From IMG/VR virus record IMGVR_UViG_2778261453_000020: DNA of 10,710 nt. One strand, given 5' to 3'. Within the stretch, counting starts at the first letter, position 1; every line of letters starts with the position of its first letter. Shown here piece by piece: positions 1-10,710 of the stretch. Made by a program: the position numbers and the translations under genes. This DNA comes from a virus (taxonomy: Duplodnaviria > Heunggongvirae > Uroviricota > Caudoviricetes). The notes under the pieces are model-generated. The model worked only from the letters and a program-made list of their open reading frames with translations. It did not search any database and had not been told where the DNA came from.

Positions 1-291
1 AATGAAACACGCCAGTTCGCCCGGATGTTGGGACTTGAACCGAAGAACACGGCGGTGCGGAGTCCGGAGAGTAACGGAATAGCAGAGAGCTTCGTGAAAA
101 CGATAAAGCGTGACTACATCAGTATCATGCCCAAACCAGACGGGTTAACGGCAGCAAAGAACCTTGCAGAGGCGTTCGAGCATTATAACGAATGGCATCC
201 GCATAGTGCGCTGGGTTATCGCTCGCCACGGGAATATCTGCGGCAGCGGGCTTGTAATGGGTTAAGTGATAACAGATGTCTGGAAATATAG
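1..291 (+). CDS. insD: IS2 transposase OrfB/InsD, C-terminal fragment (5' end outside window)
   Basis: Same frame as track ORF 25-291 but open back to nt 1. Stop TAG at 289-291 lies inside the terminal inverted repeat. Sequence recognition from memory of IS3-family integrase-core C-termini. Confidence 0.7.
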
Positions 292-302
292 GGGCAAATC
301 CA
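1..302 (+). mobile_element. IS2 (IS3 family) right end, partial; the window begins inside the element
   Basis: The frame open from nt 1 translates to ...[40 protein letters not shown]...[29 protein letters not shown], which I recognise as the C-terminus of IS2 OrfB/InsD. The terminal sequence ...CAGATGTCTGGAAATATAGGGGCAAATCCA ending at 302 matches my recollection of the IS2 right inverted repeat. The exact end is from memory, not alignment. Confidence 0.7.
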
Positions 303-1910
303 AGTATCACGTATTCCTCTAAAGCCATCTCTGAAAATATGGTTATCAACAATGGCCGCGCTAATGTCTGGGCTGGCACAATGGTTAACGTGTCAGTCAG
401 AGGGAATGATGGCATTCTTGAGGTCATGAAGCCGCAAATAAATTATGCACCCGCTATGTTGGTGGGTAAGGTAGTGGTTTCTGAGGGCGCTTCTTTTAGA
501 ACGCATGGTGCCGTGGATACCAGCAAAGCGGACGTTTCGCTCGAAAATAGCGTATGGACCATCATTGCCGATATCACTACGACGAACCAAAACACCCTCC
601 TCAACTTAGCCAACCTTGCGATGTCTGACGCAAATGTGATTATGATGGATGAGCCAGTGACTCGTTCATCAGTGACGGCAAGTGCGGAAAATTTCATTAC
701 GTTGAACACCAATACCCTGTCGGGAAACGGCAATTTTTATATGCGTACCGATATGGCTAATCATCAGAGCGATCAGCTCAACGTCACCGGTCAGGCAACA
801 GGTGATTTCAAAATATTCGTGACGGACACCGGTGCCAGCCCGGCAGCAGGAGATAGCCTTACACTGGTAACAACGGGCGGCGGTGATGCTGCATTTACGT
901 TGGGCAATGCCGGAGGCGTTGTTGATATCGGTACGTATGAATATACCTTGCTGGATAATGGCAACCATAGCTGGAGTTTGGCAGAGAATCGCGCGCAAAT
1001 TACCCCTTCAACCACTGATGTGCTGAATATGGCGGCCGCACAACCGCTGGTATTTGATGCAGAACTGGACACCGTGCGTGAGCGTCTTGGTAGCGTAAAA
1101 GGCGTTAGTTACGATACGGCGATGTGGAGTTCGGCAATTAACACCCGCAACAACGTGACCACTGATGCGGGAGCTGGTTTTGAGCAAACATTGACGGGCC
1201 TGACGCTCGGTATCGATAGCCGTTTCTCCCGTGAAGAAAGCAGTACAATTCGCGGCTTGTTCTTTGGTTACTCTCATTCTGATATTGGTTTTGATCGCGG
1301 CGGAAAAGGTAATATCGATAGCTATACCCTGGGGGCTTATGCCGGTTGGGAGCATCAGAACGGTGCCTATGTTGATGGGGTGGTGAAAGTTGACCGTTTT
1401 GCCAACACCATCCATGGCAAGATGAGTAATGGGGCAACAGCGTTTGGCGATTACAATAGTAACGGCGCGGGTGCTCATGTTGAGAGCGGGTTCCGTTGGG
1501 TTGACGGATTGTGGAGTATTAGACCCTATCTGGCCTTTACCGGCTTTACCACAGATGGTCAGGACTACACGTTATCAAACGGCATGCGCGCTGATGTGGG
1601 AAATACCCGGATATTACGCGCTGAAGCGGGAACGGCGGTAAGCTATCACATGGACCTGCAAAATGGTACGACGCTGGAACCCTGGCTGAAAGCCGCCGTA
1701 CGTCAGGAATACGCCGATTCTAACCATGTGAAAGTTAATGACGATGGCAAATTTAATAATGATGTGGCTGGAACCCGTGGCGTTTATCAGGCTGGGATAA
1801 GGTCATCGTTTACCCCGACGTTAAGCGGTCATTTGTCAGTCAGCTATGGCAATGGCGCAGGGGTAGAATCGCCGTGGAATACTCAGGCGGGTGTGGTCTG
1901 GACGTTCTGA
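303..1910 (+). pseudogene. Type Va autotransporter adhesin, C-terminal passenger and beta-barrel portion; gene interrupted by IS2
   Basis: Track ORF 276-1910 has its ATG inside the IS2 end, so that start is an artefact. Translation is Gly/Thr/Asn/Ser-rich with repeated passenger-like segments and ends ...NTQAGVVWTF with a terminal aromatic residue, typical of autotransporter barrels. The 5' part of the gene must lie beyond the IS outside the window. Confidence 0.7.
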
Positions 1911-1971
1911 TAACAAAAAATAAACAGGCTGTGATGTGTCACGGTCTGTTTATCGAATTAATTGCAGATAT

Positions 1972-2002
1972 AAAAAAAACCAACCGTAAAGGTTGGTTTT
2001 TT
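1972..2002. terminator. Bidirectional rho-independent terminator
   Basis: A8-CCAACC-GTAAA-GGTTGG-T6: perfect 6-bp stem, 5-nt loop, flanked by an A-run upstream and a T-run downstream, so it reads as hairpin plus U-tract on either strand. It lies about 60 bp after the autotransporter stop. Confidence 0.6.
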
Positions 2003-2228
2003 CTTGGGATTTTTGGCACGAGAGTAGTTTGATTTGTCGTGCAACTACATGATTTAAAATAATATTTCTGATTCAACCTTTAAGCCGTATAACCAAACGT
2101 ATAACTAAAATGATTTGCTGCAAAAATGTACAATTTAAAGCCGGATTTTCCCAGCGGTTTATGAAACTGCGAAAATTTCGTAGTTATCCCGATACGGGGA
2201 TCACCATATCGGGATTAATGCTATGAAA

Positions 2229-3155
2229 TCAGTTTTTAGCCAGAGCGGTGACGGCCTTATCTAGTTTTTGCCATCCGCAATAGGTGATTGCCCTGAACGC
2301 TGTAGCGTCATTCTGGAAAAGACTAACCGCCCCTGATTCGGTTTTTATTACCGCCTCATCAGTTGGGGTTATAACCGTGGCTTCAACGTTAATAATCAGC
2401 TTTTGAGCGTCTATCAGCATCATGCGATCCGCCTGTTCGCTCACAATTACCGGTATTCTCAAAAGCTCTATCTGCCAGAACTCAGCATCAGTAAGCTGTA
2501 AGGCGTTTTCTACGGGCAAGATTAGCGACGACGTGGCGAGCGTGTTACCGTTCGCTATGTGTTTTTTGAAAAGCTCTATAAAGTTTTCTGCTTCATCTGC
2601 ACCGTTAAGCACGCCTTCAGGTGACACGCCTTCTTCCTCCTGGTCACTGGAAAGAAATTTTTTATTAATTTCTTTCACCGATTCCGATGTGATCAAGTCT
2701 CTGATAGCTGAATTTGTACCAGGGGTGCTAAATTTGATTAGCTCGTTATTCAGCATCACAATAGCGCCGAGTTTGCACAGTTTTAGCGCACTTTCGTTAA
2801 CTTCTCCCTCTTTGACAGGGATTTCTTCGGCTTCTTTAAGCCATTTACTACCCTTGCCTGATATTGACTGCAATTTTGCGCCAAACGGAAGATTTAGCGC
2901 GCTGCTGATTAGCTTGCCTGGTACAGACTGCGAAAAAATATACTCGCCAAGCTCTCTTACTATCGGCTCTGCCACCAGCGACGGCATATTATCCGTAGTC
3001 ATTCCGGCAACAATGGATTTTTCAAGAAATTTCGATACTGCCGGATCATTTTTTTTCGTCATTTCAATTGCGTCTGCATGGCTGAATTTACACGATGTAA
3101 GCACGCTGGCGGCGCGAACTGCCGACACGCCTTTCATGTTTTTAGAAATCATCAT
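2229..3155 (-). CDS. HK97-fold major capsid protein-like (Phage_capsid family), 308 aa
   Basis: The central region KLGAIVMLNNELIKFS...SAIRDLITSESVKEINKKFLSSDQEEEGVSPEGVL and the following ...SSLILPVENALQL...IPVIVS... follow the residue pattern I recall for HK97 gp5-type capsid proteins (K.hA..h.....hL.GDG.....EGL, then ...GIVLNP...). Its ATG overlaps the stop of the preceding small ORF. Confidence 0.5.
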   Translation of the reverse strand: MMISKNMKGVSAVRAASVLTSCKFSHADAIEMTKKNDPAVSKFLEKSIVAGMTTDNMPSLVAEPIVRELGEYIFSQSVPGKLISSALNLPFGAKLQSISGKGSKWLKEAEEIPVKEGEVNESALKLCKLGAIVMLNNELIKFSTPGTNSAIRDLITSESVKEINKKFLSSDQEEEGVSPEGVLNGADEAENFIELFKKHIANGNTLATSSLILPVENALQLTDAEFWQIELLRIPVIVSEQADRMMLIDAQKLIINVEATVITPTDEAVIKTESGAVSLFQNDATAFRAITYCGWQKLDKAVTALAKN

Positions 3156-4416: not shown

Positions 4417-4827
4417 TTAAAACGGAATATCATCACCGTAGGGGTCATCGCCTCCCGCTGGTGGCTGATTACCCTGTGTGCCTGTGGTTTTGCGTCTGCT
4501 CCCGCCAGGACACGCCGTCTTCGCACTGATTACGCTGTCTGCGATAACCTGCCAGCCCTGCCGTGTTTCCCCGTTCTGTTCGGTCCACTGGCTGACCTGC
4601 ATCGTGCCGGATACGCTGGCAACGTCACCCTTTTGATGTTTAGCCAGGTAGTCGGCCTGCTTACCAAATGCGATGACCGATAGCCATAACGTCGCCTGTC
4701 CATCCTGTGCCTGGCTGCATGGCAACGATACCGCCATACGCGCCAGCGTCATTGGTGTACCCTTGCTGGTCTGTTTTACCTGCGGGTCAGCCACCAGCCG
4801 TCCGTAAGCCGCTATCTGTGCTGTCAT
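4417..4827 (-). CDS. ssb: Single-stranded DNA-binding protein (SSB-like), 136 aa
   Basis: OB-fold-like N-terminus (...LWLSVIAFGKQADYLAKHQKGDVASVSGTMQVSQWTEQNGETRQGW...), Gly/Pro-rich linker and the acidic tail ...GDDPYGDDIPF characteristic of bacterial and phage SSBs. Its ATG overlaps the upstream stop as ATGA. Confidence 0.65.
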   Translation of the reverse strand: MTAQIAAYGRLVADPQVKQTSKGTPMTLARMAVSLPCSQAQDGQATLWLSVIAFGKQADYLAKHQKGDVASVSGTMQVSQWTEQNGETRQGWQVIADSVISAKTACPGGSRRKTTGTQGNQPPAGGDDPYGDDIPF

Positions 4828-5075: not shown

Positions 5076-5288
5076 TCCCCACTACTCCCCACTTTTGTTC
5101 CCCACTTTTTAAATTCCCCACTTGCTCCCCACGTCGTTTTTTTGGTGAATCTAATGCTTTGTTTTTCATTGCGTTTTTTACTCCCCACTTTTTTGGATGT
5201 ATACAGGTGGGAAAGTGGGGAATTATGTTTTTATTTTGTTAAATTCCCCACTATCCCCACTTTTATTACCCACTTTTTACAGTGGGTA
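5076..5288. repeat. Iteron-like array of octamer TCCCCACT (about 9 direct and 2-3 inverted copies); candidate replication origin
   Basis: Direct copies at 5076, 5086, 5099, 5115, 5126 (variant TCCCCACG), 5182, 5245, 5255 and 5267 (variant TACCCACT). Inverted AGTGGGGA at 5215, with degenerate inverted copies at 5205 and 5281. Spacings of 10-13 bp. An AT-rich tract at 5134-5180 separates two clusters. Confidence 0.6.
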
Positions 5289-6683
5289 AACATCATCCCC
5301 ATCGACACAAATCACGCCGTCTTTTTCCAGCTTGGACAGCCAGCGCCGGAAGTGCTTCATCTCATATCCCAGCTTTTTCATATCGTCGCGGAGAAGGGCG
5401 ATAGTGCATGGTTCTTTGTGTGCCGTCCGCGTTCTGATGCACTGCCATAGCGCCGCGTGATTCTCCGATTTGTTGCCTGCTTCCTCGATGCGCTCCAGTT
5501 CAGCAGGGGCGCGGGGAACGTCAATCACCACCATGGACACAATCTCTTCGCCATCTGTATCGGTGAACACCTCCACGCTTTTAAGGTCGTATGCACTTTC
5601 TTTTGGCTCCTCTGCGTCCTTCATCTTCGTGCATGCCGCCACCAGTGCTGTAACGTCTGAATTTTCCCGACTGATTCGGAACTCAGCATCAAGCGCCGCA
5701 CGGAATGCGCTGGAACCGCGCGCCCCTTTCGTCTCATCCTTGCCGGAATGGTGAACCACCAGCACGGTAGCCCCTGTTGCCTGCTTTATCGCGTCACATC
5801 CCTGGATAAATGCGCCCATGTCGCGGGAGTCATTTTCATCATGACCGCCAAAGCAACGGGCCAGCGTATCAATGACGATCATCCGCACCCGTTCGCCCGT
5901 TGTGCTCTGCACAAATCCGGCAGTCCTTATTACCTGTTCCACATAGTCCGGCGATGCGGGGAATACTGGCGAATTGACGATACACAAATCAGTAACCTCC
6001 TTACCGTGGGTTATTTCCCATGCCTTAACGCGGCGTTTTACGCCCATGCTGCCTTCACCAGCAACATAGATAACCGCGCCTTTACACACCCTTCGGCCTC
6101 CCCATTTCATGCCAGTAGCAACATGACACGCCCACGAAATGGCGAGGAACGATTTATAAGAACCGCTGGCTCCGTAGGTGCTGCATAATGACTCAGCCGG
6201 AATAAGCCCCTTAATTACGTAGCTTTGCTGCGCGTCGAATCCCTCAGACCCCCATGAGATGGGAAGTGTGATTTTTCGCTTTCCGCCATTCATGACCAGG
6301 CTTTCCCCACGTTCCCAGGTTTCTTTAAGCCGCGGTAGTTGCTCGCTCCAGTCCTCCAGCAATTCGAAATTTTCAGAAAGTAGCCGCGCCTCCTGGACTC
6401 CGGCGATCGCCAGTTTTGTGGCAATGGTCAGCATCTGCATATCGTCCAGATTTCCGGCACGTATGACCTTTGTCCTGTATCGTCCTTCATCAACAATCTG
6501 TAAGTTGTCCAGTTCGTTTAACTGATAACGGCCCAGGTAAACCGGAGGGATGGGATCGCCCGCTTTTTTGGCCTGCGCAATCATGTAATGTTCTGCAAAG
6601 GAGTGAGCATCATTCCCCGCGAAAATAATTGCTTCGGTGTGTTTGTCTTTCGGTAATAGTTTTACGTTCGGTGCCAGTTTCAT
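5277..6683 (-). CDS. RepA-like replicative helicase / replication initiator (RecA-fold ATPase), 468 aa
   Basis: P-loop-like YGASGSYKS, Walker-B-like RMIVIDTL, and ATVLVVHHSGKD, which is the HHxGK motif I associate with RepA/DnaB-like phage and plasmid helicases. The C-terminal approx. 70 aa look like a possible DNA-binding domain, and the gene ends inside the iteron array. Confidence 0.6.
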   Translation of the reverse strand: MKLAPNVKLLPKDKHTEAIIFAGNDAHSFAEHYMIAQAKKAGDPIPPVYLGRYQLNELDNLQIVDEGRYRTKVIRAGNLDDMQMLTIATKLAIAGVQEARLLSENFELLEDWSEQLPRLKETWERGESLVMNGGKRKITLPISWGSEGFDAQQSYVIKGLIPAESLCSTYGASGSYKSFLAISWACHVATGMKWGGRRVCKGAVIYVAGEGSMGVKRRVKAWEITHGKEVTDLCIVNSPVFPASPDYVEQVIRTAGFVQSTTGERVRMIVIDTLARCFGGHDENDSRDMGAFIQGCDAIKQATGATVLVVHHSGKDETKGARGSSAFRAALDAEFRISRENSDVTALVAACTKMKDAEEPKESAYDLKSVEVFTDTDGEEIVSMVVIDVPRAPAELERIEEAGNKSENHAALWQCIRTRTAHKEPCTIALLRDDMKKLGYEMKHFRRWLSKLEKDGVICVDGDDVYPL

Positions 6684-6979
6684 TTTTTACCCCTGAATAC
6701 ATTCAACATCTTTCTTATTTCCTGAATATTGGCGCGTGCTTTCTCCCTGCTGGTGGGCTTACTGCGTTGCGCTGCCTGCACCAATGTAAAATCACGGGCG
6801 AACTGATAAACAGGCATCACGCAATCATATTCGTAGCCTTCACGACGGTAGGTTACGCGCCGTTCCTCCACGCCCTTAATCATTACCGTGCCGCCGTACT
6901 GGTCGCGGTAAATATCACCGCGCATGAATTTAGTGCGAGTTTTGCCACTGGCAGTTAAGCCAGAATATCTAAGTTTCAT
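6680..6979 (-). CDS. Hypothetical protein, 99 aa
   Basis: Track ORF with GGAG 9 nt upstream of the ATG; its stop overlaps the helicase ATG as ATGA. Confidence 0.45.
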   Translation of the reverse strand: MKLRYSGLTASGKTRTKFMRGDIYRDQYGGTVMIKGVEERRVTYRREGYEYDCVMPVYQFARDFTLVQAAQRSKPTSREKARANIQEIRKMLNVFRGKK

Positions 6980-6984
6980 TATTT

Positions 6985-7215
6985 TTATTCTCCGGTATGG
7001 GGCGAGTTATTATTCTCGTGAATTGCCATTGCCTTATCCAGTTCATCAATAACAGGCGATAGTAATGTCTGAATGGCTGCAAACATTAATGACGCAGCTT
7101 CTTTTCCATCTTCCGGCGCTTCAATTAATTTGCCTAACAACGCATTCATTTCGCGTGCTTTAATTAATGCGTTTTCAGAGTGGATTAATATTTCAAAAGG
7201 GATTTTATGCATCAC
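6985..7215 (-). CDS. Hypothetical helical protein, about 75 aa
   Basis: Track ORF with GTG at 7215 or ATG at 7212; AGGGAG lies upstream. It overlaps the 3' end of the preceding ORF. Confidence 0.4.
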   Translation of the reverse strand: MMHKIPFEILIHSENALIKAREMNALLGKLIEAPEDGKEAASLMFAAIQTLLSPVIDELDKAMAIHENNNSPHTGE

Positions 7216-7435
7216 AAATTTTCTCCCTTATTCTTTTAATGTCCTCATTAAGGATGTCTGTAACTTTTATCAGCGAGTTTTTGGCAATTATTTTTATTGT
7301 TTTAAGTTTTCTTTTGTCGTGCTCCGACTGTGATTTTCTCTCCATAATCTCCACCATGTGGGTAACATCAACGAGCGCACGTATCAGTATTTGCATTGCT
7401 TCTTCTGCTGCGTCCGGACGGGTGTTATTGCACAT
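7205..7435 (-). CDS. Hypothetical protein, 76 aa
   Basis: Track ORF 7205-7465, trimmed to the ATG at 7435 (AGGGGG 6 nt upstream) because the longer form would overlap the Icd-like gene by 40 nt. The C-terminal half is encoded in an AT-rich stretch (about 7205-7330). Confidence 0.4.
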   Translation of the reverse strand: MCNNTRPDAAEEAMQILIRALVDVTHMVEIMERKSQSEHDKRKLKTIKIIAKNSLIKVTDILNEDIKRIREKICDA

Positions 7436-7598
7436 GGCACACCCCCTGACGAATACGGGCGACAAAAATCAGATGTGCGTGCGGCAGCTGCGCACGGGCT
7501 TCGCGCTCAGTGGCAGCGGTAACGGTGAAAATATCAATGTTGCTGTGGTGGCACTGCATAAAGCGCCAGACAAAGTAAGGGCGTGCGGATACAGCCAT
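7425..7598 (-). CDS. Icd-like (host cell-division inhibitor family) small protein, 57 aa
   Basis: MAVSARPYFVWRFMQCHHSNIDIFTVTAATEREARAQLPHAHLIFVARIRQGVCHVQ*, with GGGAG 8 nt upstream of the ATG. Paralogous to the 7885-8082 ORF (shared FVWRF, TEREAR, ARIRQG). The Icd-like assignment is from memory of P1/P4-type family patterns. Confidence 0.5.
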   Translation of the reverse strand: MAVSARPYFVWRFMQCHHSNIDIFTVTAATEREARAQLPHAHLIFVARIRQGVCHVQ

Positions 7599-7762
7599 GT
7601 GAAAGGCTCCCAGATGAATTATAAGGAGTCTCGCTACTACGCTGCTAAACGGGGTGGCGAGACGTAACAGGGTTAGCAGACTGGTCATCTGGAAACCAGC
7701 GAGCGCAAAGGCTCCCCCGTTACGCCCCGCCATAATGCGGGTATGGGTAGGTTTACGGACAC

Positions 7763-7884
7763 AAAAAAACCGCTTATCGGATGTGGGCGGCTGTCCGCCA
7801 GATGTATTCAGGCTGCTAAACCCGGTCGCCATGTGGGCGACGGGGGAAGCATACAGCCCCGTGATAATTTTTTGCAAGCGGTTT
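7763..7884 (-). ncRNA. Candidate structured RNA (multi-stem, cloverleaf-like) ending in a U7 tract, between the two Icd-like genes
   Basis: On the minus strand, AAAAACCGCUU (7884-7874) can pair with AAGCGGUUUUU (7775-7765). This encloses hairpins GGGG/CCCC, GUCGCC-CACAU-GGCGAC and GGCGG-ACAG-CCGCC. Folds were judged by eye only. Confidence 0.25.
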
Positions 7885-8082
7885 TTACGCATGATGTGAC
7901 CCCTGACGAATACGGGCGGCGAATACAGCAACACAACCTGACGGGCAACGGTTACGCGCTTCGCGTTCCGTCCAGGCGGTTACGTGGATGATTTGAGATT
8001 CTCCGGCACTCAGGGCCAGAAAACGCCACACAAAGGCCGTTTGTGTGTGTACAAGGTGTGGTATATGATTTACGGCAACCAT
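7885..8082 (-). CDS. Icd-like small protein, 65 aa
   Basis: MVAVNHIPHLVHTQTAFVWRFLALSAGESQIIHVTAWTEREARNRCPSGCVAVFAARIRQGSHHA*, with AGGAG 5 nt upstream of the ATG. The track shows this as the 3' end of a 288-aa ORF, which I reject. Confidence 0.5.
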   Translation of the reverse strand: MVAVNHIPHLVHTQTAFVWRFLALSAGESQIIHVTAWTEREARNRCPSGCVAVFAARIRQGSHHA

Positions 8083-8170
8083 AACGGCTCCTAGTTTACG
8101 TTGTTGGTTAGACGCCCCGTATGTGTTCCCAGCACTGCGGGGCGTTGATTTTTGTGTAATGGCAAGTACA

Positions 8171-8219
8171 ATGGTAATTACCATGTAGGTATAGTAATGA
8201 AGGGTAATTACCATGTCAA
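8171..8219 (-). promoter_or_regulatory. Sigma70-like promoter (TTGACA-17-TACTAT) for the icd/replication operon with two palindromic operators
   Basis: Minus-strand -35 TTGACA (8219-8214), 17-nt spacer, -10 TACTAT (8196-8191). Perfect palindrome GGTAATTACC at 8203-8212 sits in the spacer. ATGGTAATTACCAT at 8171-8184 sits at about +1 to +14. Confidence 0.5.
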
Positions 8220-8386
8220 CACCATTAGAAAAACGTTCGCCTCCATACCAAATGCGATTACCGGAAGACTTCAGAGCGCAGCTAGAAGAAGCAGCTAAGG
8301 CCGATGGCGACACATCTTTAGCCACTTGGATTAAACGCGTTCTCCGCAAAGAATTACAGCAACGCGGCATAGAACCCAAAGGATAA
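8213..8386 (+). CDS. Ribbon-helix-helix (Arc/MetJ-like) DNA-binding protein, 57 aa; candidate repressor
   Basis: Hand translation MSTPLEKRSPPYQMRLPEDFRAQLEEAAKADGDTSLATWIKRVLRKELQQRGIEPKG*. YQMRLPEDFRAQLEEAAKADG...SLATWIKRVL fits the beta-strand/helix/helix pattern of Arc-type repressors. It is divergent from the operator-bearing promoter. Not in the supplied track; its own promoter was not identified. Confidence 0.55.
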   Translation: MSTPLEKRSPPYQMRLPEDFRAQLEEAAKADGDTSLATWIKRVLRKELQQRGIEPKG

Positions 8387-8443
8387 AAACTATCAGCGCC
8401 GTGGTGTGAGGTATTACGGCGCATTGCTATGCAGGACAACACA

Positions 8444-8617
8444 ATGACCGATAAAGAATTGACCAAAACATTATCACCGGCACGGAAAAGACGGCGCAGA
8501 AAGATAGAGCATGAATCAGAAAGATTCGCGCCATGTGCTTTTGCCCTTGAGCAATTCCTTAAAGAGTATAGGGAAAAGCGCTCATTGCAGGTATGGCAAC
8601 GAACTGAACCAGACTGA
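8444..8617 (+). CDS. Possible small basic protein with arginine-rich motif, 57 aa
   Basis: In-frame part of track ORF 8429-8617; AGGA lies 7 nt upstream of the ATG at 8444. Contains ARKRRRRK. It sits between the RHH gene and the terminator at 8712-8739. Coding status is uncertain. Confidence 0.25.
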   Translation: MTDKELTKTLSPARKRRRRKIEHESERFAPCAFALEQFLKEYREKRSLQVWQRTEPD

Positions 8618-8765: not shown

Positions 8766-8972
8766 TTAAGCAGCCGTTCCGCGTGCTTCCTGTTCGCGTT
8801 CTTTCTGCCAGGCCAACACATCATCCTCATACCATCCGCGACGGCGTAAACCAACGCGAAAACCCTGCGGAAATTCTCCGGCGTTGATCATGCTTTGCAG
8901 CGTGCTGTCTGCCTTGATGTGGATAATTTTTTTTACTTCCTGGCGAAAGATAATTTTTCTGATTGCTTCCAT
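8766..8972 (-). CDS. alpA: AlpA-family (phage Vis/AlpA-type) DNA-binding regulator, 68 aa
   Basis: ...KIIHIKADSTLQSMINAGEFPQGFRVGLRRRGWYEDDVLAWQKERE... matches the AlpA helix-turn-helix pattern. It lies next to a P4-type integrase, as is usual for such islands. Confidence 0.7.
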   Translation of the reverse strand: MEAIRKIIFRQEVKKIIHIKADSTLQSMINAGEFPQGFRVGLRRRGWYEDDVLAWQKEREQEARGTAA

Positions 8973-9468: not shown

Positions 9469-10710
9469 CTACACGGCTCGGATACCCCTTTTACCACTGG
9501 CGAGGGTTACGCCCGTCGCCGCAGCCTCGACAAATTCGCCCCACCAGCGCATCAGCACGATGCGTTTTTCTATGTAGTTGCTCCGGTTGTATGCCCGTCT
9601 AACTTCGTTGGTGTCGACGTGGGCAAGTGCCGCCTCTATTACGTCCGGCTCGAATCCTTCCTCGTTCGCTGCTGTGCTGAATATGGCGCGTAATCCATGA
9701 GACACCAGCACGCCAGCAAATCCCATACGCCGCAATGCTGCGTTAGCTGTCTGGCTGTTCATCGGCTGCTGTGGGTCTTTCAGGCTTGGGAAAACGTAAT
9801 TGCGGTGGTGGCTGATTGGTTTCATGGCCTCCAGCACCGCCATAGCCTGACCGGAAAGCGGGATAACGTGATCCCTGCGCATCTTCATGCGTCCGGCAGG
9901 TATCGTCCATTGCTTCGCGTCCAGGTTGATTTCATCCCACCGCGTTGATGACGCTTCGGCGGGACGGGTTACGGTCAGTAACTGCCATTCAATCAGTAAT
10001 CTGGTCTGCCGTTCTGTTGCCGATACTGATAAAGCCTGCATAAGCTCCGGCAGCTGTTCGGGGCGGATTGTTGGCATATGTTTTTTTACAGGTGAGGGAA
10101 ACGCCTTACGCACATTCATAGCCGGATTGGCATCAATCAGCCCACTGTTGGCGGCGTAATCCATTACCTCATTAACGCGCTGTAAAACCCGCTTGAGTGT
10201 TTCCAGGTTGCCGCGCTCCTTGATGGGTGTAAGCACCTCAACGAATCTTCGGGCGGTGAGGGTATCTATTGGCGTGTTGCCGATGAACGGGAATACATAT
10301 TTATCCAGCGAACGCCAGATGTCTTTAATCGTGTTGGGGGCCAGATTCTGGCTGATTTTCACCTGGTACCATGCCGCCGCCACATTTTCGAACGTGTTCC
10401 CTTGTCTTCGGGCCTCTGTCTCTCTTTTTTGCCTCTCGTGGTCCTGCGGGTCAGTTCCGGCACGAATTAACGCCCTGTACTCGCTACGGCGTTTTCTGGC
10501 ATCAGCCAGGGAAACATCTTCAAGCGATCCAAAACTCAGCAATATTCTTTTTTTGTCCGATGGTCGGTAGTAGGAAAATCTCCAGAGTTTTGATCCAGAC
10601 GGTTTGACCAGGAGAAAAAGCCCTCCGCCGTCCTGCAGGGTGTACTCCTTTTGCGCTGGTCTGGCTGCTTTGATCTGCACTGTGGTTAATGGGTGTGTTT
10701 TTCTCGCCAT
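9469..10710 (-). CDS. P4-type tyrosine integrase, 413 aa
   Basis: N-terminal ...GLFLLVKPSGSKLWRFSYYRP... arm-binding-like domain. Catalytic-core motifs: R in ...TVTRPAEAS..., HGLRAIF (H-x-x-R), and ...ALAHVDTNEVRRAYNRSNYIEKR with the likely catalytic Tyr. The ATG is the final base of the window, so the promoter and attachment site are outside it. Confidence 0.85.
   Translation of the reverse strand: MARKTHPLTTVQIKAARPAQKEYTLQDGGGLFLLVKPSGSKLWRFSYYRPSDKKRILLSFGSLEDVSLADARKRRSEYRALIRAGTDPQDHERQKRETEARRQGNTFENVAAAWYQVKISQNLAPNTIKDIWRSLDKYVFPFIGNTPIDTLTARRFVEVLTPIKERGNLETLKRVLQRVNEVMDYAANSGLIDANPAMNVRKAFPSPVKKHMPTIRPEQLPELMQALSVSATERQTRLLIEWQLLTVTRPAEASSTRWDEINLDAKQWTIPAGRMKMRRDHVIPLSGQAMAVLEAMKPISHHRNYVFPSLKDPQQPMNSQTANAALRRMGFAGVLVSHGLRAIFSTAANEEGFEPDVIEAALAHVDTNEVRRAYNRSNYIEKRIVLMRWWGEFVEAAATGVTLASGKRGIRAV

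Follow-up and report, generated by a model that had tools for sequence, protein, structure and literature searches.

Why would a small mobile element carry two genes of one protein family in series, and what controls them? The question is raised by a DNA of 10,710 nucleotides (nt) recorded as IMG/VR virus IMGVR_UViG_2778261453_000020 (Caudoviricetes; hereafter the window, meaning the whole stretch analysed). Judged from its genes, it is an E. coli phage satellite of the phage-inducible chromosomal island (PICI) or capsid-forming PICI (cf-PICI) type. Its minus strand bears two short open reading frames (ORFs), icd-1 and icd-2, which an earlier reading of the sequence (the original prediction) had taken for tandem, diverged copies of an Icd-like gene, possibly a toxin-like and a regulatory partner. 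We find a complete antisense-RNA regulator between them. In our assessment the locus is probably a P1/P7-type C4 antisense switch, set between the two icd genes at the head of the satellite replication operon and gating icd-2 together with the genes coupled to it.

A C4 antisense RNA and its target sites fill the spacer

The 286 nt separating icd-1 from icd-2 are filled with RNA elements, all of which lie on the minus strand in an Rfam scan of the window (Table 1). The central one is a C4 antisense RNA gene, matched over the whole length of its family model and well above the gathering score. It is preceded by a c4-a1b1 element with the upstream target sites a1 and b1 and by an IsrK-like terminator hairpin, and followed by the downstream sites a2 and b2, the second of which contains the Shine-Dalgarno sequence of icd-2. 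The minimum-free-energy fold of C4 reproduces the architecture of the family, with b' exposed in a hairpin loop, and the spacer as a whole folds far better than its shuffles (z = -4.1). The resemblance to isrK is confined to the b1 hairpin and the terminator. A simple terminator scan did not flag the hairpin between b1 and C4, which we accept only because it resembles the IsrK model and is conserved with P1; it is likewise kept in P7.

Compared with phage records by BLASTN, the window matches in this spacer only (7829..7640), where it is 74-79% identical to the c4 regions found in P1, P7 and related phages. Positions 7850..7596 align at 79% with P1 immI, from a1 to the icd start codon, and the ATG of icd-2 falls on that of P1 icd. 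The P1 record lists a1, b1, c4, a2, b2, icd and an overlapping ant1 in this order and annotates a2/b2 with 'repression of icd ant translation'. The window shares with P1 and P7 the order from a1 to icd, the position of b2 over the icd Shine-Dalgarno sequence and the overlap of the next gene with the icd stop. Because the aligned start codons coincide and the P1 features follow in the same order, we regard icd-2 as the positional orthologue of P1 icd and the locus as an immI-type module.

Two further candidates were set aside: a pairing of GGGGGAGCC in C4 with an upstream GCUUCCCCC, because the P1 annotation places a and b elsewhere, and an apparent likeness of GUCUAACCAAC in the icd-1 leader to the a' segment, because Rfam shows no second C4 in the window.

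Table 1. Positions of the features of the window discussed in the text, from the right-hand end leftwards
Feature	Position	Strand	Remarks
Integrase ORF	10710..9469	-	assigned by eye and from the annotation of relatives
AlpA, weak match	8972..8766	-	17.6 bits; Pfam gathering score 21 bits
Arc-like ribbon-helix-helix gene	8213-8386	+	phrog_228; adjoins the palindromes, divergent
Candidate sigma-70 promoter of the icd-1/C4/icd-2/replication operon	8191..8219	-	TTGACA 8219..8214, 17 nt, TACTAT 8196..8191; 10/12 consensus
Palindrome GGTAATTACC, two copies 30 bp apart (region 8171..8214)	8173-8182, 8203-8212		one in the promoter spacer, one over the predicted start sites; putative operators
5' leader hairpin before icd-1	8112..8145	-	ACGCCCCG, 18-nt loop, CGGGGCGU, then CUAACCAAC
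icd-1	7885..8082	-	65-aa Icd-like protein; first cistron of the leftward operon; no C4 target site
Open frame of the supposed N-terminal extension	7599..7892	-	ATG 7892 overlaps the icd-1 end; open, in frame into icd-2
c4-a1b1 element (upstream C4 target sites)	7805..7854	-	Rfam RF03163, 45.5 bits (gathering score 46.7), E = 4.6e-9
isrK match	7841..7763	-	Rfam RF01394, 36.8 bits; gathering score of 50 not reached
a1	7820..7813	-	UUUAGCAG
b1	7804..7798	-	CAUCUGG
IsrK-like terminator hairpin and seven-U run	7763..7791	-	between b1 and C4; 3' part of the isrK match
C4 antisense RNA gene	7650..7737	-	Rfam RF01695, 71.6 bits (gathering score 45), E = 9.5e-13, model positions 1-87 of 87
b' loop of C4	7692..7685	-	CCAGAUGA
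a' segment of C4	7679..7673	-	CUGCUAA
Downstream C4 target sites (a2/b2)	7607..7649	-	by alignment with annotated P1 a2/b2
a2	7649..7642	-	UUUAGCAG
b2	7617..7607	-	UCAUCUGGGAG; contains icd-2 Shine-Dalgarno GGGAG
icd-2	7425..7598	-	57-aa Icd-like protein; positional orthologue of P1 icd (by alignment); presumed C4-gated cistron
Next cistron	7205..7435	-	76 aa, phrog_5146, function unknown; ATG at 7435 within the last icd-2 codons
DUF4222 protein	6979..6680	-	Pfam PF13973, 2.2e-24
RepA/AAA_25 replicative helicase	6683..5277	-	Pfam PF13481, 3e-43
Single-stranded-DNA-binding (SSB)-like ORF	4827..4417	-	from the annotation of relatives

C4 and its targets covary across related loci

The pairing between C4 and its sites was followed through related elements. 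A scan of IMG/VR for the C4 pattern found 120 loci, which gave 119 unique C4 regions for analysis with the window and P1 included. A second scan of viral contigs used a 17-mer of the icd-2 ribosome-binding site; five of its hits were unusable and were left out, four as unrelated chance matches (L129, L133, L140 and L150) and one (L139) with just 59 nt of upstream sequence. These pattern scans of viral contigs were used in place of a profile search of genome contigs with a three-sequence Icd alignment, which yielded 4 loci.

Two a' types and at least 17 b' loop types occur among the 119 loci, and in nearly all of them a perfect complement of 7-9 nt to C4 is found at each of a1, a2, b1 and b2; the few shorter complements lie mostly at contig ends. 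In the window, b' (CCAGAUGA) complements b1 (CAUCUGG) and b2 (UCAUCUGG) perfectly over 7-8 nt, and a' (CUGCUAA) complements the UUAGCAG of a1 and a2. Its a-type is that of P7, while its b-type differs from those of both P1 and P7. Without selection for pairing, such three-way covariation between C4 and the sites on its two sides would be difficult to account for. The covariation of a1 and b1 with C4 over these loci also supports a function for the c4-a1b1 element of the window, which scores 45.5 bits where near-identical relatives reach 46.8-48.5 (gathering score 46.7).

The duplex predicted between b' and b2 spans the icd-2 Shine-Dalgarno sequence with an energy of -14.5 kcal/mol, which none of 300 shuffles attained. 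A search for a C4 target in the 5' untranslated and ribosome-binding region of icd-1 gave nothing beyond shuffled controls.

Both icd genes encode constrained Icd-family proteins

Both minus-strand ORFs are present with the limits first proposed for them. Since each lies within a longer stop-to-stop frame (288 and 169 aa for icd-1 and icd-2), an ORF listing shows them at those greater lengths. The two proteins share 24 of 48 aligned residues (50%, BLASTP E = 2e-12), and the FVWRF, TEREAR and ARIRQG motifs on which the suggestion of paralogy had been built are all seen in the alignment. Their assignment to the Icd family was borne out by the NCBIfam profile NF033153 (phage_ICD_like, 'host cell division inhibitor Icd-like protein'), whose curated cutoff of 25 bits is exceeded by icd-1 (64.8), icd-2 (55.9) and P1 Icd (52.6). 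Identity to P1 Icd is 46-47% for both proteins, and at this distance the FxWRF and TExEAR motifs are kept from P1 to the satellites. Homologues of icd-1 are plentiful in the databases as E. coli 'Icd-like' proteins of 62-66 aa.

Each gene has its own ribosome-binding site, as had been noted, in the form of a GGAGCC 3-6 nt before the ATG; in icd-1 the two together occupy 8091..8080. The ratio of nonsynonymous to synonymous polymorphism (pN/pS) is 0.42 for icd-1, with 25, 24 and 45 variable columns at the three codon positions (13 unique relatives), and 0.41 for icd-2, with 16, 17 and 30 (11 unique relatives). Given these ratios of about 0.4 and the concentration of variable columns at third positions, both ORFs are protein-coding and under moderate purifying selection.

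Pfam matched no family in either ORF, and PHROGs gave matches to the Icd family only. Two of these are labelled 'transcriptional repressor', a label that we did not use and that probably stems from old records, RCS47 among them, in which c4 is entered as a repressor protein. An AlphaFold2 model of Icd-1, built on a shallow alignment of 27 sequences, has a mean predicted local distance difference test score (pLDDT) of 72 and a beta-beta-alpha-beta fold with a compact core at about 83. Foldseek found no neighbour of this model in the PDB at E < 1, so the fold yields no functional inference. The P1 and P7 records describe Icd as a reversible inhibitor of cell division, a statement made for these two phages only; by analogy, either protein of the window may inhibit division as well.

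Within icd-1, an 8-bp hairpin (CACACAAA / TTTGTGTG, followed by GCGTTTTCTG) lies at 8027-8047 on the minus strand among the codons for HTQTAFVWRF. It is the only terminator-like site returned by the simple terminator scan, and the truncated upstream icd copy of two relatives (L052 and L073) stops just past its equivalent. It could be a translation-sensitive attenuator or a product of chance. Separately, some close relatives of Icd-1 (P0046, P0049, P0109; H48, H49) are labelled 'ash family protein' or carry Pfam PF10554 (Phage_ASH) at lengths of 104-111 aa, which suggests fusions or overlaps of Icd-like and Ash-like ORFs in other satellites.

The end of each icd gene doubles as a Shine-Dalgarno sequence

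The original prediction had also pointed to similar DNA flanking the two genes. The repeat itself is real: the 18-mer CCCTGACGAATACGGGCG has just two exact occurrences, 7444-7461 and 7901-7918, and no match was found in 200 shuffles. It is not flanking sequence; its reverse complement is the stretch of codons for ARIRQG with which both genes are provided at their 3' ends. In icd-2 the RQG codons spell CAGGGGG, and the ATG of the next cistron follows 6 nt later, inside the last codons of the gene. This arrangement holds across related loci, where the next start overlaps the icd-2 end by -4, -8 or -11 nt in 30 of 32 cases and always lies 6-7 nt after the CAGGGGG or CAGGAGG of the final RQG or RQE codons. 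At least 7 unrelated gene families occupy the slot behind icd-2 in these loci. The end of icd-1 has the same junction, again with an overlapping ATG. Thus the 18-mer would be kept in both copies because it encodes a conserved motif and at the same time serves as Shine-Dalgarno sequence to a following cistron coupled in translation, as at the P1 icd/ant1 junction.

The pair is what is visible of a tandem cassette duplication

An upstream icd gene is present in 14 of the 119 loci, all of them short satellite-like contigs, and absent from 92 others that have enough upstream sequence, mostly contigs of P1-type phages. Four of the satellite-like loci (L029, L052, L053 and L073) contain two full C4 genes in series by Rfam, in the order isrK, C4-A, icd-1, a1b1, C4-B, icd-2. 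In these double-cassette relatives the upstream isrK scores 61.8-66 bits, above its gathering score of 50, and C4-A has a and b specificities of its own, with b2-A placed over the Shine-Dalgarno sequence of icd-1. The two a-types counted above belong to cassette B; further ones occur in cassette A.

The second scan gave 31 satellite loci with enough upstream sequence. The arrangement of the window, icd followed by C4 and icd, accounts for 22 of them. The other nine have two C4 genes, four as C4, icd, C4, icd and five with an additional truncated icd in front. A family match to icd-1 was found in all 31, the copy in L029 being frameshifted at its C-terminus. Because C4-A comes with its own sites and b2-A covers the icd-1 Shine-Dalgarno sequence, we read the icd pair as the outward sign of an immI-type cassette that was duplicated whole and in tandem. 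The earlier idea of duplication and divergence holds; what was duplicated would be the cassette of target sites, C4 and icd, not a bare gene.

Three database proteins (P0073, P0076 and P0094) combine an N-terminal half of icd-1 type with a C-terminal half of icd-2 type. Homologous recombination between tandem copies would be expected to produce such hybrids, removing a1b1 and C4 in the process and depriving the operon of its antisense gate.

One promoter appears to serve the operon

The candidate promoter in front of icd-1 is the sole minus-strand promoter-like site found between 7300 and 8450, with none between icd-1 and C4. As no second site was found in this interval, C4 appears to be co-transcribed with icd-1. 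Two copies of a palindrome overlie the promoter, and relatives have different palindromes at the same place; the divergent gene next to them encodes an Arc-like ribbon-helix-helix protein. A plus-strand sigma-70-like promoter at 8145-8172 faces the minus-strand one (8219-8191), and a 62-aa ORF lies near the Arc-like gene at 8429-8617 (+). The promoters and palindromes of 8145-8219 together with the Arc-like gene are probably the protein-level switch of the satellite.

The leader hairpin before icd-1 is kept at the operon start in single- and double-cassette relatives. Just upstream of the icd operon in L062 and L053 are weak matches to the SymR antitoxin RNA of Rfam (L062 1311-1383, minus strand; L053 8403-8475, plus strand; 33 bits against a gathering score of 61, E about 0.02), with no counterpart reported in the window.

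A model for gating of the replication operon

Mechanistically, the minus strand would be read from a promoter with palindromic operators through the leader hairpin, icd-1, a1/b1, a leaky terminator, C4, a2/b2 and icd-2 into the overlapping genes that lead to RepA. By analogy with P1/P7, P4 and Salmonella isrK, we infer that C4 is cut out of this same operon transcript, a processing step that in the C4 family involves RNase P, and that its a' and b' segments pair with a2 and b2, masking the icd-2 Shine-Dalgarno sequence and blocking translation. For P1 and P7 the analogy draws on the record annotations and on the work of Citron, Biere, Riedel, Heinrich and Schuster. Through the overlap of the next start codon with the icd-2 end, the block would spread to the coupled genes down to RepA, probably with Rho-dependent polarity as in P1. 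The upstream a1/b1 sites, equivalent to IsrK or SeqA, and the terminator would either compete for C4 or tune termination and read-through, and a burst of transcription could therefore override the block. The icd-2 cistron would in this way double as a gated translational adaptor for whatever cargo follows it.

The place of icd-1 is the least certain part of the model. It would be the leader cistron of a second, upstream cassette whose C4 is absent from the window and, for that reason, would be controlled by the promoter and operators only, its product appearing whenever the promoter fires. It could act as an early division inhibitor, as a translated leader or as an entry point for read-through.

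Several points weigh against the proposed switch. With a shared promoter, production of C4 would always bring ungated Icd with it, a difficulty should Icd-1 inhibit division strongly. Both Icd proteins lack the C-terminal 20 or so residues of P1 Icd, so their activity may differ from that of the P1 protein. The c4-a1b1 and isrK matches of the window score under their Rfam gathering thresholds, and the processing of C4, the promoter and the terminator are all predictions. Finally, a frame opening at ATG 7892 runs in phase through C4 into icd-2, with an unvarying length of 294 nt in each of the 14 first-set loci; ribosomes entering at this ATG could bypass the C4 block.

Alternative readings of the locus

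The last point can be turned into a more ambitious proposal. Enterobacterial PICI-type satellites would use antisense gates in series and of combinatorial specificity, with one C4 RNA or two in tandem, each locking the ribosome-binding site of its own Icd leader; together these gates would form the immunity of the satellite and the threshold for induction of its replication. The 294-nt frame would be a read-through path, along which translation of the ungated icd-1 overrides the lock, melts the terminator and destroys the C4 precursor. We regard this combination as doubtful. Were the read-through reading true, the 'long N-terminal extension Icd' that has been reported as a cell-death effector would really be a C4 RNA switch.

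Could the Icd ORFs be nothing but translated leaders that act in cis, against polarity and for coupling, with peptides that have no function in trans? The start/stop overlap is conserved with variable cargo, the ARIRQG codons double as a Shine-Dalgarno sequence, the P1 record calls icd 'apparently required for expression of ant', and orf45 of the isrK locus is conserved in nucleotides and variable in amino acids. We nonetheless think it unlikely, in view of the protein-level purifying selection on both ORFs, the motifs shared with P1, the compact core of the predicted fold and the annotation of P1/P7 Icd as causing reversible division arrest.

The frame across C4 also underlies a competing gene model. 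In E. coli relatives the Prokaryotic Genome Annotation Pipeline (PGAP) draws the downstream copy as an Icd-like protein of 153-154 aa that crosses a1b1, the terminator and C4; the calls at 5996-6460 in L001 and 6353-6814 in L002, both RefSeq E. coli, correspond to 7425-7892 of the window, and neither record has an RNA feature at the locus. If this model were right, the downstream copy would be a genuine long protein. Its start at ATG 7892 has an AGGGG resembling a Shine-Dalgarno sequence and overlaps the icd-1 stop, and the segment stays open in the first-set loci despite -1/+1 indels. Those very indels, compensating each other, cause 4 of the 14 loci to read about 38 codons of the extension in a different frame, conserving nucleotides and not amino acids. 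The extension has a pN/pS of 0.91, like the other two frames (1.11 and 0.83), and its variable sites are spread evenly over the codon positions (13/17/15). Its residues 1-100 match no PHROG, and the stretch is itself the strong C4 match, homologous to P1 sequence annotated as c4 RNA and targets and not as coding. In one relative, L147, a 1-nt deletion breaks the frame and leaves icd-1, C4 and icd-2 intact, a homopolymer sequencing error being possible there. Open frames of at least 49 codons are moreover present at this place in 19 of 89 P1-type phages, upstream of the annotated icd start, and a conserved Shine-Dalgarno sequence belongs to the short icd-2 itself, whose ATG coincides with the P1 icd ATG in the alignment. 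On this evidence the PGAP model is quite improbable, and the extension is probably not a conserved protein. The frame may possibly be translated without a protein function; at the Salmonella isrK locus, orf45 is translated across a C4-like RNA, its nucleotides conserved and its amino acids not (PMC4825925).

Other calls belong beside these. A third 'Icd-like' call in L001, given as a pseudogene, is merely the long open frame upstream of icd-1, and phrog_29966 (188 aa) seems to be built from comparable over-extended calls. Four satellite-like contigs (L030, L044, L049 and L099) show a third architecture, a single C4-icd cassette with no upstream icd; here an open frame of about 175 aa runs through C4 into icd, and the Icd proteins end in ...ARIRVREACHV.

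Since the upstream C4 is absent from the window, icd-1 might be regarded as a decaying relic of its cassette that has no present function. Relatives with a complete upstream cassette exist, and so do hybrid or truncated icd copies (such as a fragment of 25 codons in L052 and L073, and a number of incomplete database entries). Decay fits poorly with a gene that is recognisable in every satellite locus that could be scored, follows promoter and leader directly with a strong Shine-Dalgarno sequence, and is under the same selection as icd-2, with the same third-position excess. Loci with icd-1 and a single C4 are also the majority form. We therefore hold the relic explanation to be very unlikely.

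The pair of roles first suggested, in which one Icd inhibits division and the other controls or neutralises it, would suit two diverged copies with their own ribosome-binding sites and the division-arrest annotation of P1 Icd, but we give it next to no credence: both proteins are of one family with the same motifs, the 286 nt between them hold a complete antisense regulator with covarying targets, each Icd copy has its own C4 RNA in relatives, P1-type phages manage with a single icd, natural hybrids of the two exist, and no DNA-binding or antitoxin-like domain was found in either ORF, Pfam being empty and PHROGs giving the Icd family alone (PADLOC and libraries specific to toxin-antitoxin systems were outside this search). 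A type II toxin-antitoxin system consists of two different adjacent or overlapping proteins with a cognate antitoxin domain, a description that the Icd pair does not fit. The regulator of the locus would instead be the C4 RNA, pairing at icd-2 and having no site at icd-1.

Relation to known immunity systems

C4, a1b1 and Icd are already known, as are the P1, P4 and IsrK paradigms; the differences lie in how the parts are assembled. P1 is a 94-kb plasmid prophage, whereas the window is an integrative satellite of about 10 kb. Behind icd, P1 has an antirepressor (ant1/2) and the window has small unknown ORFs leading to the RepA helicase. Upstream of a1 lie promoters and a C1 operator in P1 and a second icd gene in the window.

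The immunity of satellite P4, compared here by description, follows the same logic of an RNA gating downstream replication genes, with CI RNA, seqA/seqC and the leader ORFs kil and eta before the alpha primase operon. According to work by Deho, Ghisotti and colleagues, as summarised in PMC4825925, CI RNA is reportedly processed from the early replication-operon transcript and pairs with one site upstream and one downstream of itself. Control in P4 has mainly been described as premature transcription termination, and we know of no Icd-like leader in P4. By its Rfam score, the RNA of the window is a bona fide member of the C4 family.

The isrK locus of Salmonella Gifsy-1 (IsrK, STnc1160, orf45, anrP) combines translational gating with coupling (PMC4825925). 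It shares with the window a short terminated 5' RNA homologous to a1b1 plus terminator, a stable processed RNA and a small coupled leader ORF. It differs in that the leader orf45 overlaps the C4-like RNA and is not a homologue of Icd, the cargo is an antirepressor, and IsrK is an activator in trans.

The genes that RefSeq calls 'host cell division inhibitor Icd-like protein' in PICIs and P4-like elements of E. coli are these very genes, drawn as two Icd-like coding sequences. A 2026 survey of satellites lists an Icd-like accessory gene in most elements (PMC13612085). Our literature search turned up no paper linking PICIs to C4 RNA and, within the searchable literature, neither an icd-C4-icd or tandem double-C4 arrangement nor covarying specificities in such breadth; where PICIs and Icd were named together, the isocitrate dehydrogenase gene was meant.

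The locus shows the P1/P7 immI antisense switch to be shared by a large group of E. coli satellites, in which it stands at the head of the replication operon, often duplicated and in many covarying specificities. To our knowledge, the silencing of replication and the sensing of helpers in PICIs and cf-PICIs of Gram-negative bacteria are poorly understood, AlpA being the sole regulator usually cited. The switch would offer a testable model for satellite immunity, for induction thresholds and for cross-immunity of P1-like phages and satellites that reside together. A systematic annotation problem comes to light as well: in the inspected records C4 is unannotated and a 154-aa Icd is drawn over it, which bears on genetic screens that hit this 'protein'.

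Satellite context and distribution

The classification as a PICI or cf-PICI draws on the combination, in some 10-15 kb, of integrase, AlpA, primase or helicase and packaging genes (the small terminase subunit, TerS, to which capsid, portal and protease may be added). Read from right to left, the window contains the integrase, the weak AlpA match, the Arc-like gene, the switch, two small ORFs, the DUF4222 protein, the RepA helicase, the SSB-like ORF, TerS and a truncated capsid gene. The DUF4222 and RepA genes keep their order in annotated E. coli relatives, and in intact relatives an HK97 capsid gene is found together with genes for a protease and a portal.

The left end of the window (1-3155) looks degraded, the capsid gene (2229-3155) encoding 308 aa against 385 aa in relatives. 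Two ORFs in this part were assigned by eye, one of 544 aa (276-1910) as autotransporter beta-domain-like and one at 25-291 as a transposase fragment, and a hairpin with a U-run at 2028..1955 gives a weak and probably spurious Rfam match to BSnc120 (E = 0.38). Part of the region is matched by 927 of 5426 complete E. coli genomes, about one in six, and 68 of these match at least 80% of it.

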